Shown: one piece after another, positions 15,001-24,000 of the stretch
Numbering within the stretch: position 1 is the first letter of the stretch
Layout: the number at the start of each line of letters is the position of its first letter
Origin: Pseudomonadota bacterium
GTDB lineage: Bacteria; Bdellovibrionota_B; Oligoflexia; Oligoflexales; RGVZ01
Assembly: GCA_041178085.1 (NCBI GenBank)
Contig: JBEGVZ010000026.1
Coordinates: forward strand, 1 to 64,000
Reading direction: 5' to 3'
DNA length: 64,000 bases
Program-made: the position numbers

Positions 15001-18000
15001 GGCGCTGGTAACAGACAACATCAATTTGTTTGTGTCCGCAAAGAACCGGGCCAGGTTGGGGTACCGGTTGCGCATCTGCCATGCCCAGAACAACTGGCGC
15101 CGCGGATGGCGGTGACTGGACAGTATCTGCAGCACAGCCTGCTCTTCCTCGTTCAAATCGAGCTCGTTCTTGCGATTGAAGAAGTCTGTTGCCGCATCAC
15201 GAACCTGCTGGTCAAGTTCCTGGTGCTTTTGCCGTGCCTCCAGCAGGTCAACCTTCTGGGTTTCCTCCTCGAACAGGAGCTGAAAGTGTTGCCAGGAACT
15301 GGCAAGCAGGGAAAGCGTCGGGATGCGCTGGCCGAAATGACGTAGCATGAGGAGAACCTGGTCTACCGGATGGGTCTCGCATAACGTCCTGGCTGCTTGC
15401 TCGGAGGCGGAGATTTCCTTGTCGTCCATGCTCCTGTTGCGCACGAAGGATTCCATGACCCGTTCCCAGGTGTGGGTTTCTGCGCTGCGGTGGTTCTTTT
15501 CCTTGTCGCGGCGGTGGCCGTCGAGGACGTGCAGGTTTGTGGACTCCTGACGGCGGAAGGGAAAGACCAGGGCATCGTGGGAGGAGCGGGCGCTGCCTTC
15601 CTCGTGATGCCATTTGTGTGTGTCAAACTGCATGGCCATCCGGATGGACTGGATTTTGGGCGCCTGGGTCAAGTCACCATAACCAACCCGGATGATGTTC
15701 CTGGTGGCAAGCGCGCTGATTGCGTTACGGATCTCCACCGGTTCCCAGTGAAGCATCAGCGCAAGTTCATTCTCGGTGGTGATGATCTGGTCGAGCCCGG
15801 ACACGGCGCAATTCAGCAGATACAGGACGATGCTGTACTCGCAAGGGGTCAACTTTGCGAGTGCCAAAAGCTTGAAACCGGATTCCCTGTAAAAACTTTG
15901 GACGCTCATGACTTGTTCTCCACCTTGTCCGGAGCATCCATCTTACCCGACTCGGCCTATTCGCTCCAGCGTGCGACCGTCTGACCGGCGGTAACCTGGT
16001 CGCCGATGGCGACCTCGATGCTTTCTATTCGGCCGGCCCTTTGCGACTTGACCTCGAATTCCATTTTCATGGACTCGATCACGAGCACCGGAGCCCCTTC
16101 TTCGACACTGGAACCCGCGATGACCTTGATTGCAACAATCTTGCCGGGCACCGGGGCGGAAACGTGCCGGTTGTTTGTCTGGCCCCCCTGGCCGCTGGCG
16201 CCCAGGCCCGCGAGCGCTGAAAGGCCTGGTTTCTCGATGCTACGCTGAAAGTCATGGCCACAGAGATTGACATGGATCGTGCGATTTCCGCCTGTTTTCT
16301 GGACGGCGAAATGAAATGGCACGCTACGACCCTTTACTTTGACCGATCCGAGTCCCATGCGCGTTACTGTGGTGGCGTCGCGCGCAGTTACTTTTTCGTG
16401 GTGAAGCCTGGCCGGCCCGGACAAGTCTCCCTGTGGCGCCGTGGTTGCGATCGCACGCGCGCCACCGAAGGCCAGACGGGTCAGTGATTCGGTGGTTGCG
16501 CCTGTGGGTGCCGGGGAGGCCGTTCCAGTGGAGTAGGCGACCGCGTCCAAGGCCGCTGTTGCACCCGCTTCAACTTCAGCCCGCGCCAAGGCTTCCCATG
16601 ACTTGAATGCCGGCATCTGGTCGGCGATGAAATGGGTGCTGACCGCGTGGTCCTTGAAACGGCTTGTGCCGGACAACCAGGTCAACAGGGCAATGTTGTT
16701 CGCCTGATTTGCAAGGAACATCTGTCCAAGCGCCTGATTGAGCCGGGCCAGGGCAGCTGGACGGGATTCCCCGGTTGCGACCAGCTTTGCCACCATGGGG
16801 TCGAACCTTGAAGTCACTTCATCCACCATGTCGAGGCCGGTTTCCCAGCGGATGCCCGGGCTGCAGGGGGTGATAAATGCCGATACCGGCCCGGGGGCCG
16901 GGAAGAAATTGTTATGAACATCCTCGGCATAGATCCTGGCTTCGACGGAATGGCCGCGGGGTTTCAGCGAACCGAACGCAGCTGGCATTTTTGCGCCGCA
17001 GGCGATGAGAAGTTGCCATTCGACCAGGTCAAGACCGAAGACCTCCTCCGTGACGGGATGCTCAACCTGCAGCCTCGTGTTCATTTCCAGGAAAAAGAAA
17101 GGCTGACTTGCAGAGGCAGGCGCGTTGCCGTCGACCAGGAACTCAACCGTTCCGGCCGAATCGTAGCCAACAGATTTCGCAAGCCCGATGGCCGCATCAT
17201 GCATTGCCTTGCGAGTGGTATCGTGAAGCTCAGGCGCTGGCGCCTCTTCAATGATTTTCTGGTGACGCCTTTGGAGTGAGCAGTCACGATCACCGATGGC
17301 GACTGCCTGACCGTGCTTGTCGGCAAGGATCTGCACTTCGACGTGGCGCGGGCTTTCAAGGTAGCGTTCGACGACGAGCAGCCCGTTGCCGAAGGAACTG
17401 CGTGCTTCCGACGCGGCACGCGCAGCCTGTTCGAGCAAGGACTCCACGTCGCGAACGATGCGCATGCCCTTGCCGCCGCCGCCGTAAGCAGCTTTGATTA
17501 AAAGCGGGAAGCCAGTTGCTAAAGCAAATTTTTTCAGTGCATCGCGTCCCTTGGCCGGGTCATTCTCGATGTCAATTCCATCCAGCCCCTCAATGCACGG
17601 GACTTTTGCCTTGATTGCCAGCGACCTGGCAGCCGCCTTGCTGGCCATGGCTTCGATAGCGTCCGGATTCGGACCAACCCAGGTCAGCCCGGCTTTGTTC
17701 ACATCTGCAGCGAAGGCTGCGTTTTCCGAAAGGAAACCGAAGCCAGGGTGCACCGCATCGCAGCCATTGGCTTTTGCGATGCGGATCATTTCTGCGGCAT
17801 TCAAATACAGGGCTGTGGTTTCTTCTTCGACGTGGTGAAAAAGGGTGATCACGTCAGCCAAGTATGCTGGCGGAGTTGTGCGGTCCGTGACGGCGACGGT
17901 CTCAATGCCAAGGCGCTGCGCGGTCAAGGCGATCCTGCGTGCGATTTCTCCGCGATTGGCGATAAAGAGTCGTTTGATCTTCACTGCGATTCCTGTGCCA

Positions 18001-21000: not shown

Positions 21001-24000
21001 CAGGTAGGCCGGATCGTAAGCTCGTCCGCACATGCCGTAGTTGCCGGCCCCAAAACTTCCACCCACCACCATGGTCACTTTGGGAACCCGTGCATTGGCG
21101 ACGGCGTGTACCATCTTGGCCCCGTCACGGGCTATGCCGCCGTGTTCATACTTTTTGCCAACGATGAATCCAGTGATGTTCTGCAGAAACAGGAGGGGCG
21201 TGTTTTCCTGCGTGCAGAGCTCGATGAAATGGGAAGCCTTAAGGGCCGATTCCGAAAACAGGACGCCGTTGTTGGCGATGATTCCCACCGGCACACCGTT
21301 GATGTGCGCAAACCCAGTGACCAATGTGGTCGCGTAGTTTGGCTTGAATTCGAAAAGTTCGGAATCGTCCACCACGCGGGCGATGATCTCGCGGACATCG
21401 AAAAACTTGCGCGGGTCTTGGGGCAGGATGCCAAGGATTTCTGCCGGGTCGTATGCTGGTCCTGATGCAGCGCGCAAGGCCACTAGCGGGCGCACAGGTT
21501 GGCCCAGGTGCTCGACGATGCGGCGGACGATACCAACGGCATGGACGTCATTCTCCGCAATGTGGTCGGCAACGCCACTGATGCGCGTATGGACATCCGC
21601 GCCGCCCAGCTCTTCTGCCGTGACGTCTTCGCCCGTGGCAGCCTTCACGAGGGGCGGGCCTGCAAGAAAAATGGTCCCGTTGCCGCGAACGATGACGCTT
21701 TGGTCCGACATGGCCGGGATATAAGCGCCGCCCGCGGTGCAGAATCCATGCACTGAAGCGATTTGCTGGATACCGGCAGCGCTCATTCGCGCCTGGTTGA
21801 AGAAGATGCGTCCGAAGTCGTCCTTGTCGGGAAAGACTTCGTCCTGCATCGGCAGAAATGCGCCACCAGAGTCCACCAGATAGACACATGGCAAGTGCAA
21901 TTGTGCGGCGATCTCTTGAGCGCGCAGGTGCTTTTTCACCGTGATGGGGTAATAAGTCCCGCCTTTCACCGAATGATCGTTCGCCACGATCATGCAAGGC
22001 CGGCCGTGCACCAGGCCTACACCCGTGACGATACCGCCGGCGGGCACGTCGTCTTCATACAGCCCTTCGCCGGCAAGTGGCGAAAGTTCCATGAAGGATG
22101 ATTCGGGATCGACCAGCGCGTGTACCCGGTCCCGCACGGAGAGCTTGCCATCGGACCGCTTTGCGGCGCCCGCTTGGGAGACTTGGAGTCCGCGTGCGGT
22201 CTTCGCTGCGAGGTCGTCTGCGGCTTGCAGGTGAAACGAGTGGTTGGCCTTGAAGTCAGCGGATTTGGTTGAAATCTGGCTTTGGATTTTCATGTGACGT
22301 TGAACGGCTCCAGGTCTTTCCAGCAATCGAGGCCGTCGCCATCGACGGTCAGCAAGTTTTTCAGGACTTCCGCAGTGACGCGCACGTCCCCCATGGACCT
22401 GTGGCGGCTGCTGAAAGTCAGGTTGTAATGAGCGGCCAGCGTATCGAGTTTGCGATTTTCCAGTTTTGGCAGGATGGTTCGCGCCATTTTCAGTGTACAG
22501 AAACAAGGAAGGTCAACTTCATAGCCGAGGCGCAAGGCCGCTGCCCTCAGCATTGTAAAGTCAAACTCCGCGTTGTGGGCCACCATGAGGCTGCCGTCAA
22601 CAAACTGAAGGAATTCCGGCAGAACATCCTCTACCCGGGGTTGGCCGGTGAGCATGTCCGGAGTGATGCCGGTAAGTTGCTGGATCTGGGCGCTAAGCTC
22701 AACTTCGGTGGAAATAAAAGTTGAGAACGTATCGACGACTTCGAAACCCACGAGTTTTTCCGCCCCGATCTCGATGATCCGGTCCTGGTTGATGTCGAGG
22801 CCGGTGGTCTCAAAGTCGAAGACCACGATCGGAACTTCCTCGATTCTTGCGGTTGGTGCAGGCACAAAACGGACCACCCTCCTGAGGGTAAGTGCGTCGT
22901 CCTTGTTGCGCTCGGCAGTCGTGGCAGAATCACCGCCAAGGGTACTGCCGTCGGGATAAATCACCGAGTGGAACATGGAATGTGCAAGCGCCGAAACGGC
23001 CGCGTTGCTGGTCATGCGCGGGTCCCGCCCAGGCTTTGCCGGGAGCGCCTCAGGCGCATTACCGTGCCGCCAAACACTGCAGTCACCATCGCCAAACCCG
23101 CGAGCATCGTTGCCACCGCTGTCGAAGCATTCAAACCGGTAATCCTGGCACCTGTCATGGCAAGTTCAAGCGAAGTCACGGGGACCCAAAGCGCAGCAGC
23201 AACGAGTTTTGCAGCCATCGGATGCCGGGAAATCCACTCTGCCGCGGGCGGACTGAGCCGGTAATAGGTTTCTACCAGCTCGCTTCCTGCTGGATGCAAT
23301 CGAGCGATTCCATCCCGGAACCAACGCAACGGGCGCAAATTTTTGTGGAGGGGTGTACCGTACGTCGCGGTTGCGATGAAGCATCGCAAGTCTTCCTCGG
23401 TGGCCTCGCCTTCCCCGTTCAGTTCAGTCAGTGTGATATTTGCGCTTGGCGTTGCTGTCAGGCAGAGGCTCCGCTTGAGCGCATCTGGCTGGTACATGGC
23501 GACGACGGCGTAGGACACGTCGTTTTCCAGTCCGTTGATTTGGCGGTTGCCGTTGCTGGCACTTTTGACCTTGATGTTCTCCGGGTCGAGCAGGGCAAGC
23601 GCGGCGGTATCGAGGTATGCCTTGTCCGGACAAGTGATGCACGCGCCGCCCGAGGCAAGCGATTCATCAAAGGTGCATGAGCTGGCCGGGTCCGATTCAG
23701 AACTGGGCGAGAACACTTTCGCCGGCAGGGCTGGATAGCTTGCCCCGAGGCGAAATGAGATGACCGTGGCATCGGTCGGTGAACCAGTGGAAGCAGCATC
23801 CGATGCACCGACAAAGGCAATGCTGGTTTTACGATCGAAGGACACGTCGAGGGAGCGGTGGCTGCCGATGATACGCAGGTTCTCCGGAGCTTCGTTGACC
23901 ACGGTCGGGTTCACCGTCACGGTGCCATCTACGGCGTCGCCCTTCTGGGTTTGGTCTTCATAATATTTGAAACGCAGCTTCACCGTCTTCTGGTCGGAGC

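Follow-up and report, generated by a model that had tools for sequence, protein, structure and literature searches.

The window analyzed here (64,000 nucleotides, positions 1 to 64,000 of contig JBEGVZ010000026.1) contains an operon for the lower part of leucine catabolism, in a genome that has a mevalonate operon and no recognizable HMG-CoA synthase (HMGS). This combination raises the question of where the HMG-CoA for isoprenoid synthesis comes from, and whether the catabolic pathway has a lyase at its end. A preliminary description of this DNA held that leucine breakdown is the only visible source of HMG-CoA and that no HMG-CoA lyase follows it. The explanation that we consider best overall, at slightly better than even odds, is a leucine-fed mevalonate pathway in which the AtuA-family protein of the operon acts as HMG-CoA lyase.

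Mevalonate genes and the missing synthase

The mevalonate operon (contig C80) encodes type 2 isopentenyl-diphosphate isomerase (IDI-2; 352 bits, TIGR02151), class II HMG-CoA reductase (HMGR; 368 bits, TIGR00532), a weakly matching GHMP kinase, diphosphomevalonate decarboxylase (MDD; 195 bits, TIGR01240), and mevalonate kinase (MK; 179 bits, TIGR00549), followed by MqnE. IDI-2, HMGR, MDD, and MK all score above the TIGR cut-offs, and the HMGR also reaches 391 bits against that of P. mevalonii (1qax). The second GHMP kinase ORF (L002:5272-6573), a candidate phosphomevalonate kinase, has matches of only 51 and 36 bits, below the cut-offs. With this one weak match, the composition reported previously (IDI-2, HMGR, two GHMP kinases, and decarboxylase) is borne out. 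The operon resembles the classical one (mvaS, mvaA, mvaK1, mvaD, mvaK2, and fni) in combining class II HMGR, MK, MDD, IDI-2, and a second GHMP kinase, but no mvaS was found anywhere in this genome.

The assembly is 96.06% complete and consists of 136 contigs. HMG-CoA synthase (PF01154 and PF08540) and HMGL-like domains (PF00682) had no match in it at E<=10, and a profile built from four HMGS-like ORFs of relatives did not exceed 8.6 bits when all six frames were searched. When the HMGS-like ORF of a relative and the canonical lyase (HMGL) of the relative G007 were used as queries, nothing was retrieved from this genome (phmmer, E<=1e-3; tblastn, E<=1). IspH (LYTB), the marker searched for the MEP pathway, is absent as well. 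These results agree with the absence of synthase, HMGL-like, and MEP genes in the preliminary description, the last as far as IspH represents them. Rv2498c of M. tuberculosis, a CitE-type (R)-HMG-CoA lyase, shows that leucine catabolism can end in an enzyme other than HMGL. Unlike in that case, no CitE-like gene was found in this genome, in which PF03328 (HpcH_HpaI) matches only short stretches inside large unrelated ORFs of 1633 and 551 aa. Four thiolases are present, and the weak Thiolase_N matches are KAS enzymes. For the upper leucine pathway, which is only plausible, the candidates are several acyl-CoA dehydrogenases and two E1 proteins with fused alpha and beta parts, none of them specifically named.

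Given HMGR, the kinases, decarboxylase, and IDI-2 without HMGS or IspH, the HMG-CoA from the operon in the window would be the only recognizable isoprenoid feed, and the carboxylase with its hydratase is the only recognizable source of HMG-CoA in this genome. Leucine may be the sole route, and may be derived from prey.

The carboxylase operon

The operon (15957-22293, minus strand) has the order methylcrotonyl-CoA carboxylase (MCC) beta, AtuA, hydratase, and MCC alpha, with overlapping stops and starts (Table 1). The positions given previously hold. The longest ORF of the hydratase begins at 19045; within it, an in-frame ATG at 18847 forms an ATGA overlap with the stop of AtuA. The GTG start of MCC alpha overlaps the hydratase stop, and, by the ORF coordinates, an exonuclease gene that ends at 22290 touches or overlaps the MCC beta start at 22293. 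The flanks comprise this exonuclease, a CFI-box protein, a 313-aa protein, and a nitrite/sulfite-reductase-like protein. The 313-aa protein has no Pfam or NCBIfam match, and in G007 MCC alpha is likewise followed by a 45%-identical counterpart. It is possibly a regulator, as its N-terminus looks winged-helix-like by eye only.

Table 1. Features of the MCC operon and its neighbors in the window; gene names in parentheses are those of the preliminary description.
Feature	Position	Strand	Evidence
DEDD (RNase_T) exonuclease	22290-23015	-	RNase_T 132 bits; directly upstream of MCC beta
MCC beta (carboxyltransferase) subunit (g00497)	20695-22293	-	Carboxyl_trans 485 bits
AtuA-family protein, AtuA domain N-terminal and ferredoxin-like domain C-terminal (g00496)	18844-20691	-	PF07287 487 bits; AtuA_ferredoxin 85 bits
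Crotonase-family enoyl-CoA hydratase (g00495)	17981-18847	-	ECH_1 145 bits
MCC alpha subunit (g00494)	15957-17984	-	Biotin_carb_N, CPSase_L_D2, Biotin_carb_C, Biotin_lipoyl (residues 607-671)
Conserved 313-aa protein without family	14968-15909	-	Neighbor of MCC operon

The beta subunit scores 693 bits against MCC beta of P. aeruginosa (3u9r_B) and 660 bits against human MCCC2, compared with 474 bits against the beta subunit of geranyl-CoA carboxylase (GCC; 5ikl_B). One chain labelled 'propionyl-CoA carboxylase beta' (9tps_A) reaches 685 bits, and lower-ranking chains named PCC or transcarboxylase reach at most 270 bits. The alpha subunit contains both a biotin carboxylase and a biotinyl domain, the combination taken here to mark MCC. 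Judged by its sequence, the carboxylase is of the MCC type and not a GCC, so that the caveat raised previously in favor of a GCC is not upheld by these scores. For the hydratase, no equivalog cut-off was reached; its best NCBIfam match is NF004227 (gamma-carboxygeranoyl-CoA hydratase; 229 bits, below the cut-off of 426), and its PDB neighbors are unnamed enoyl-CoA hydratases (ECHs). In a tree with the family labels of the tool, this hydratase groups with the cluster hydratases of AtuA-less relatives from the order, following taxonomy rather than AtuA presence. The hydratases of the HMGL-bearing family that uses the MEP pathway form a separate clade (29-31% identity). From its context, the protein is assigned as 3-methylglutaconyl-CoA hydratase.

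Together, MCC, the hydratase, and AtuA would form the lower half of leucine catabolism, and the operon would convert 3-methylcrotonyl-CoA to HMG-CoA. The Liu cluster of Pseudomonas (liuABCDE) likewise leads to HMG-CoA through MCC beta, MCC alpha, and a crotonase-type hydratase. The operon in the window differs from it in lacking LiuE (HMGL) and LiuA, in having AtuA inserted between beta and hydratase, and in a product that would also feed HMGR.

Distribution of the pathway genes in the order and class

Drafts or MAGs were surveyed, comprising 104 genomes of the class that are at least 85% complete (83 of high quality) and 95 genomes of the order, this one included. In the class, HMGS_N was found in five of 104 genomes (above the cut-off in four) and IspH in two, both of family f17. 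An ortholog of MCC beta is present in 102 genomes, including all 83 of high quality, and the two genomes without it also lack AtuA. These counts extend the earlier proposal of leucine breakdown as the only visible HMG-CoA source. Class II HMGR (TIGR00532) was found in 96 of 104 genomes, with PF00368 matches in two of the eight misses. AtuA occurs in 95 of 104, and in 91 of these 95 no more than 300 bp separate it from MCC beta. The counts for the order (HMGR 93/95, HMGS_N 4/95, and AtuA 88/95) differ somewhat from those reported previously, which gave HMGR in 84 of 94.

The absence of HMGS holds in 99 of the 104 class genomes. These include the single-contig genomes G046, G047, and G072, for which it had already been reported, as well as the single-contig G113 and G118 and the seven-contig G045. 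With 243-303 bits, the HMGS-like ORFs of the order, four in number, fall short of the equivalog cut-off of 360; one of them lies beside a PKS ketosynthase and another beside FabH and a dehydratase. The lack of a synthase alongside a lower mevalonate operon thus reaches beyond the family to almost the whole class. Leucine-derived HMG-CoA as the feed of the mevalonate pathway, in this genome and in the class, is a proposal well supported by genomics but unproven.

For the lyase, an order-level search, which the preliminary description lacked, gave PF00682 matches in 46 of 95 genomes. Most of these lie in ORFs with the size of pyruvate carboxylase (about 1150 aa) or LeuA (400-550 aa). Two ORFs of 400-550 aa and four of 342-350 aa have their best scores as isopropylmalate/homocitrate synthase or 4-hydroxy-2-oxovalerate aldolase, and the NF004283 lyase cut-off was reached by ORFs from six genomes (17 ORFs scanned). 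None of the 21 genomes of the family to which this genome belongs has a PF00682 match, in agreement with the earlier finding. Across the class, HMGL-type matches occur in five of nine AtuA-less genomes versus 11 of 95 AtuA-bearing ones; there is no clean complementarity between AtuA and HMGL. The only strong canonical HMGL (426 bits), in G007, comes from a contig of 1.9 kb and may be a contaminant.

Both f17 genomes have IspH, no HMGR match, and no AtuA. In one of them, G095, the genes for beta, ECH, and alpha are followed by an HMGL-like ORF about 3 kb past MCC beta. This pattern is consistent with the grafting of a mevalonate module onto leucine catabolism. The genes for beta, ECH, and alpha are also retained in five genomes that have HMGR and neither AtuA nor an HMGS match (G007, G001, G002, G097, and G099). 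Neither AtuA nor any lyase was found in G001, G002, and G097, suggesting that a lyase is not needed for retention of the pathway. AtuA also adjoins an MCC-like beta (56-63% identity) and an ECH in Silvanigrella, Zixibacteria, and a 'delta proteobacterium' MAG, and its neighbors in an Acidobacteria MAG are ECH and MCC alpha. HMGR was not found in two of these four (G124 and G125), and none of eight genomes with such AtuA clusters has an HMGL above the cut-off.

AtuA as a candidate lyase and competing explanations

AtuA belongs to the same family as CmlA and shares the fold of this solved citramalate lyase, with about 15% identity; the motifs G-R-x-x-D and L-Y-E are common to both in a profile alignment. 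AtuA-ECH fusions exist in other lineages. One AtuA relative (P0149) is fused to a Ser/Thr kinase and TPR repeats. CmlA/CmlB (PDB 9evf and 9erq; the Cml of Raoultella planticola was used in bioRxiv 10.64898/2026.01.16.699985) breaks a tertiary 3-hydroxy acid down to a ketone and free acetate. It differs in its low identity, in having two subunits where a single fused chain is found here, and in its free-acid substrate, whereas a CoA ester is expected for AtuA. AtuA has long carried a tentative assignment as the lyase that releases acetate in the parallel Atu pathway (PMC4847356). There, too, the gene for an AtuA-family protein accompanies those for a biotin carboxylase pair and a hydratase, and the same chemistry is proposed, namely the release of acetate from a 3-hydroxy-3-alkylglutaryl-CoA. 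As the carboxylase here is of the MCC type and other atu genes are absent, the alkyl group would be methyl, i.e., the substrate would be HMG-CoA. Given this family membership and name, the operon probably encodes its own non-canonical HMG-CoA lyase, and the earlier statement that no lyase stands at the pathway end is not supported. Fold, family name, gene position, and fusions together make acetate-releasing HMG-CoA lyase the most likely function of AtuA, which would probably be a newly recognized kind of HMG-CoA-cleaving enzyme.

Under this explanation, AtuA would cleave HMG-CoA to acetoacetyl-CoA and acetate and would thereby substitute for the HMGL-type gene that G095, which uses the MEP pathway, has in its MCC cluster. 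HMG-CoA would be a branch point rather than a dead end, leading through class II HMGR to isoprenoids or through AtuA and thiolase to energy. Myxobacteria have an HMG-CoA synthase, and leucine is one source among several in them. A comparable shunt, in which leucine-derived HMG-CoA enters HMGR directly, is described for myxobacteria and trypanosomatids in excerpts of PMC7321100 and PMC5993337, according to which T. brucei also has HMG-CoA synthase and leucine is one source among several. The present case differs in that the synthase is missing across the whole class (matches in 5/104).

It is unlikely that the pathway truly has no lyase, with AtuA being accessory, regulatory, or specific for another substrate and all leucine-derived HMG-CoA passing to HMGR, as originally proposed. 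Such a pathway is consistent with the lack of HMGL-like matches in the family, with the kinase fusion of P0149, and with G001, G002, and G097, which have MCC, ECH, and PF00368 matches (fragments in G002 and a kinase-fusion copy in G097) and no AtuA, HMGL, or HMGS. The match of AtuA to a solved lyase in fold and family argues against it, as do its proximity to MCC beta in 91 of 95 genomes, its place ahead of the hydratase gene in this operon, its fusion to hydratases elsewhere, and the AtuA-MCC clusters of G124 and G125, in which no HMGR was found. The latter clusters also speak against AtuA being a reversed or bidirectional enzyme that acts as a non-homologous HMG-CoA synthase on acetoacetyl-CoA and acetate, perhaps aided by a nucleotide, in which case acetyl-CoA could feed the mevalonate pathway and leucine would not be the sole source. 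This alternative has a similarly small probability, if anything a shade lower. AtuA is confined to IspH-less genomes of the class (95/102, versus none of the two with IspH), a solved relative was crystallized with ADP (title of 9evf), and the four thiolases could make acetoacetyl-CoA. Nevertheless, the five genomes with HMGR, no HMGS match, and no AtuA retain MCC and ECH, and the position of AtuA inside a catabolic carboxylase operon favors cleavage. Furthermore, judging by citrate-lyase-type equilibria, a condensation that uses free acetate runs thermodynamically uphill under cellular concentrations.

If HMG-CoA came from an unrecognized synthase with another fold, or from a canonical one whose gene fell into assembly gaps, the MCC operon would be one of ordinary leucine catabolism. 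The 136 contigs and 96% completeness of the assembly leave some room for this, and Table S2 of the Spirobacillus genome paper (PMC12321486) lists an HMGS candidate marked '(?)'. It is nonetheless improbable, since the absence is repeated in 99 of 104 genomes, single-contig ones included, and the six-frame profile search gave at most 8.6 bits. Least probable, and very doubtful, is an acyclic-terpene (Atu) pathway with a GCC and no relation to leucine. AtuA is present and the top NCBIfam match of the hydratase is a gamma-carboxygeranoyl-CoA hydratase, albeit under the cut-off, but the beta subunit is far nearer to MCC (693 bits) than to GCC (474 bits) and the operon flanks contain no AtuB-, AtuD-, AtuG-, or AtuH-type genes. 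In addition, an acyl-CoA dehydrogenase follows alpha in AtuA-less relatives, and in the larger genomes G072 and G063, a separate second AtuA adjoins a beta subunit that shares only 44-46% identity with the one in the window.

The exonuclease gene is found immediately upstream of MCC beta also in G007 and G001, and in G002 it is near the cluster, between hydratase and alpha.

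Operon layout and carboxylase identity

The genes for the MCC beta subunit, AtuA, a crotonase-family hydratase and the MCC alpha subunit follow one another in the same direction on the minus strand, and their order and overlapping stops and starts indicate that they form one operon. The beta stop and the AtuA start are separated by three bases, and the stop codon of the hydratase gene overlaps the start codon of alpha. Two observations fixed the start of the hydratase gene: an in-frame ATG shares bases with the AtuA stop in the sequence ATGA, and the Pfam match starts a short distance downstream of this codon. 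A scan for consensus motifs detected no sigma-70-like promoter in the operon region, and fewer terminator-like sites there than in shuffled sequence.

Coordinates of the operon genes and their immediate neighbors
Feature	Position	Strand	Remark
313-aa protein without family	14968-15909	minus	directly after MCC alpha
Biotin carboxylase/BCCP (MCC alpha)	15957-17984	minus	
Crotonase-family hydratase	17981-18847	minus	ATG 18847 chosen over longest-ORF start 19045
AtuA-family protein with ferredoxin-like C-terminal domain	18844-20691	minus	
Carboxyltransferase (MCC beta)	20695-22293	minus	
DEDD (RNase_T) exonuclease	22290-23015	minus	stop overlaps MCC beta start
467-aa protein, CFI-box-CTERM domain (72.7 bits)	23012-24415	minus	upstream of exonuclease gene

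The same exonuclease gene directly precedes MCC beta in the relatives G007 and G001; in G002, it is close to the cluster. On the other side, the 313-aa protein is 45% identical to the protein at the equivalent position in G007. This protein may be a regulator of the operon, given that its N-terminus resembles a winged-helix DNA-binding domain by eye; this appearance and the absence of a family assignment led us to discard the idea of a hidden enzyme.

The preliminary description had raised the concern that the carboxylase could act on geranyl-CoA. The beta subunit scores 693 bits against MCC beta of P. aeruginosa (3u9r_B) and 660 bits against human MCCC2, whereas the score against the beta subunit of geranyl-CoA carboxylase (5ikl_B) is only 474 bits. 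Moreover, the flanks of the operon contain no further atu genes, and AtuA-less relatives of a sister family have an acyl-CoA dehydrogenase gene right after alpha. We therefore identify the carboxylase as MCC and dismiss the concern. Some large genomes of the order have a second AtuA gene beside a second carboxyltransferase gene (G072:C1:4180180-4184459 and G063:C355:44873-49155). These carboxyltransferases are only 44–46% identical to the MCC beta of the window, and the loci possibly represent a true geranyl-CoA-type atu cluster.

Mevalonate genes and HMG-CoA synthase across the class

Textbook mevalonate pathways start from acetyl-CoA and proceed via HMG-CoA synthase (HMGS). The genome studied here (G000; 3.0 Mb in 136 contigs, 96.06% complete) has an operon on contig C80 that encodes IDI-2, a class II HMGR, a weakly matching GHMP kinase, MDD, and MK, followed by MqnE. 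The HMGR scores 391 bits against the P. mevalonii enzyme and is the only form in G000, without a kinase fusion. Six-frame HMM searches of G000 gave no match for HMG_CoA_synt_N, HMG_CoA_synt_C, or HMGL-like (E ≤ 10), and none for IspH, which was the MEP gene searched. An HMM built from four HMGS-like ORFs of relatives reached at most 8.6 bits in all six frames, and phmmer and tblastn searches of G000 with a relative's HMGS-like ORF and a relative's HMG-CoA lyase (HMGL) returned nothing. Weak Thiolase_N matches near contig ends were considered as a truncated HMGS and turned out to be KAS enzymes. M. tuberculosis uses a CitE-type lyase for HMG-CoA; the two HpcH_HpaI matches in G000 cover short segments of ORFs of 1633 and 551 aa, and this candidate was rejected as well.

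These patterns extend to the relatives. Among the 95 genomes of the order (including G000; 58 of high quality), HMGR was found in 93 and AtuA in 88, and HMGS_N in four. Among 104 genomes of the class and phylum that are at least 85% complete (83 of high quality), five have an HMGS_N match (four over the cut-off), 96 have class II HMGR, and two have IspH. The eight genomes without class II HMGR include G002 and G097, which have PF00368 matches, and the two IspH-bearing genomes, G095 and G096, both from family f17. The MCC beta ortholog (E ≤ 1e-100) is present in 102 of the 104 genomes and in all 83 of high quality, a retention comparable to that of a core gene that includes genomes of 1.8–2.2 Mb. 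Both genomes that lack it (G080 and G122) are missing AtuA too, which would fit a gap spanning the entire operon. AtuA was found in 95 of the 104 genomes; in 91 of them, at most 300 bp separate it from the MCC beta match, and two of the other four have the two genes on different contigs.

The order has only four HMGS-like ORFs (L011–L014, from G025, G021, G036, and G067), which score 243–303 bits, below the equivalog cut-off of 360 bits. One is next to a type I PKS ketosynthase gene and another is next to genes for FabH and a dehydratase, such that these ORFs may encode polyketide beta-branching enzymes rather than mvaS. The absence of HMG-CoA synthase from a mevalonate pathway, as claimed in the preliminary description, is real and class-wide. 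HMGR ORFs of 790–945 aa in relatives were considered as thiolase-HMGR (mvaE-like) fusions, which would hint at an HMGS partner; they carry a C-terminal APH/EcKL-like kinase domain and no thiolase. Such fusions occur as second HMGR copies of 794–945 aa at L015:3896-6280 (G090, of the same genus), L016:5387-8164, L017:5714-8551, and L018:4715-7552, and their neighbors are GNAT, GT2, or PPDK-like genes.

AtuA as a putative HMG-CoA lyase

A PDB sequence search with AtuA alone returned nothing. An AlphaFold model based on an alignment of 66 diverse family members was confident (pLDDT 91.9), and its top Foldseek match is 9evf_A, 'Citramalate lyase - ADP - pyruvate complex' (E 5e-21, TMt 0.77). The C-terminal ferredoxin-like domain of AtuA corresponds to the 105-residue chain B of this entry. 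The profile of the AtuA alignment also detects 9evf_A (E 1.5e-10), which its depositors entitled 'Acyclic terpene utilization AtuA family protein | Citramalate lyase, subunit A (cmlA)'. This CmlA has about 15% identity to the AtuA of the window. Citramalate shares with the isohexenyl compound and HMG-CoA the structure of a tertiary 3-hydroxy acid whose carboxymethyl arm is free. Judging from its position, the hydratase would produce the same (S)-HMG-CoA that is used by HMGL and HMGR. AtuA in an MCC-type operon would most likely convert HMG-CoA to acetoacetyl-CoA and acetate, and the four thiolases of G000 could complete the breakdown. HMG-CoA would thereby become a branch point. The earlier statement that the leucine pathway has no lyase is better replaced, based on this fold and family match, by a putative non-canonical, AtuA-type lyase inside the operon. 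We found no biochemical characterization of AtuA itself in the literature. The proposed release of acetate from HMG-CoA gives a concrete function that can be assayed to a family that has been an orphan for approximately 20 years. If true, this role would also account for the apparent absence of HMG-CoA lyase from many MCC-bearing genomes.

A lyase role gains further support from AtuA genes elsewhere. In other lineages, AtuA is fused to enoyl-CoA hydratase (proteins P0170 and P0186). Silvanigrella, Zixibacteria, and a 'delta proteobacterium' MAG have AtuA beside a hydratase and an MCC-like beta subunit (56–63% identity), and in an Acidobacteria MAG its neighbors are a hydratase and MCC alpha. 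Of eight AtuA-bearing genomes from this survey (seven from other phyla and one Silvanigrella; completeness not given), none has HMGL over the cut-off and five have no HMGR, which speaks for a catabolic lyase role that is not tied to mevalonate. Another protein, P0149 (1257 aa), has an AtuA domain together with a Ser/Thr protein kinase and TPR repeats.

A clean complementarity between AtuA and HMGL was not found. NF004283-type matches (E ≤ 1e-40) occur in five of the nine AtuA-less genomes and in 11 of the 95 AtuA-bearing ones, so the pattern is only partial. Most of the HMGL-like genes inspected are located beside genes for CaiB-type CoA transferases and acyl-CoA dehydrogenases, not beside MCC. 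Those at L044, L045, L047, L048, and L066 score 250–300 bits to NF004283. The one strongly canonical lyase (426 bits) is found in G007, on a contig of 1.9 kb. For G000, a cluster on contig C8 (L056, 1959-8685) with ScoA, ScoB, and thiolase genes between two class-III aminotransferase genes and an aldehyde dehydrogenase gene was considered as proof of acetoacetate use and hence of a classical lyase. This context is ambiguous, and the cluster may serve amino-acid or 3-oxoacid catabolism.

The MEP-using sister family f17 provides an informative contrast. G095 and G096 have IspH and lack both HMGR and AtuA. In G095, the MCC cluster (L073, G095:C4:74000-92000) has the order beta, hydratase, and alpha, followed by an HMGL-like ORF. 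Its alpha gene is split into three ORFs and its lyase is partial, which may reflect sequencing error, frameshifts, or decay. For G096, the MCC contig (3.3 kb) is too short to show the end of the cluster. Lineages other than f17 have the mevalonate operon. They have neither IspH nor, within the MCC cluster, HMGL, and in most of them the AtuA gene separates beta from the hydratase. The hydratase tree follows taxonomy, with or without AtuA, and the f17 hydratases form their own clade (29–31% identity). The hydratase was therefore vertically inherited within lineages regardless of AtuA, and a joint acquisition of AtuA and hydratase as one module is rejected.

Leucine as a candidate source of mevalonate

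Five AtuA-less genomes have HMGR and no HMGS match, namely G007 (94% complete), G001 (82%), G002 (85%), G097 (92%), and G099 (93%), and all five have kept beta, hydratase, and alpha. In G001, G002, and G097, no HMGL-type gene was found. HMGR is the only recognizable consumer of the operon's HMG-CoA in these three genomes and the operon is the only recognizable producer, which is the strongest genomic argument for a feed from leucine. An alternative is that AtuA is a reversible acetate lyase whose reverse run, from acetoacetyl-CoA and acetate and perhaps with nucleotide assistance, provides a non-homologous HMG-CoA synthase and hence the missing first mevalonate enzyme of the class. A reaction near equilibrium could in principle go backwards and supply HMG-CoA, and AtuA would then act as a valve where leucine catabolism, acetyl-CoA, and isoprenoid synthesis meet. 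The AtuA-less genomes speak against reverse AtuA being necessary, and we consider this alternative improbable. A mevalonate pathway that lacks the synthase and is fed by leucine catabolism, as the preliminary description proposed, is the best available explanation, albeit unproven.

The whole class, including Oligoflexus, Pseudobacteriovorax, and Silvanigrella according to the titles of relatives, appears to join only the lower mevalonate pathway to leucine catabolism. Close AtuA relatives carry the names Oligoflexus, Pseudobacteriovorax, and Bdellovibrionota, among others. If the leucine feed is true, the peptidoglycan carrier lipid, menaquinone, and carotenoids depend on leucine or 2-ketoisocaproate, and families without LeuA, including that of the window, would take this leucine from outside the cell.

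The leucine shunts of T. brucei and myxobacteria are precedents, but these organisms have HMG-CoA synthase, which nearly all genomes examined here lack. For T. brucei, sterols are reported as the sole destination of the leucine feed, and HMG-CoA synthase is also reported (PMC5993337). In the Spirobacillus genome paper, the HMGS candidate in Table S2 carries a question mark (PMC12321486). We found no description in the literature of a bacterium without HMG-CoA synthase that relies on leucine for mevalonate, nor of a bacterial mevalonate pathway with leucine as its sole feed. The finding is a variant of a known leucine-mevalonate shunt, together with a testable function for the orphan family AtuA.

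An upper leucine pathway is plausible in G000, with enzymes that have no specific names. In addition to the PDH complex, there are two fused E1 alpha-beta 2-oxoacid dehydrogenases, which have no specific NCBIfam name and could represent the branched-chain 2-oxoacid dehydrogenase. Acyl-CoA dehydrogenases that score 228–257 bits against the cluster dehydrogenase of G097 and G099 are also present. The fused E1 genes are located at L081:4594-6954 (contig C74; 786 aa) and L082:1043-3520 (contig C107; 825 aa), and one of them is divergent from an acyl-CoA dehydrogenase gene.
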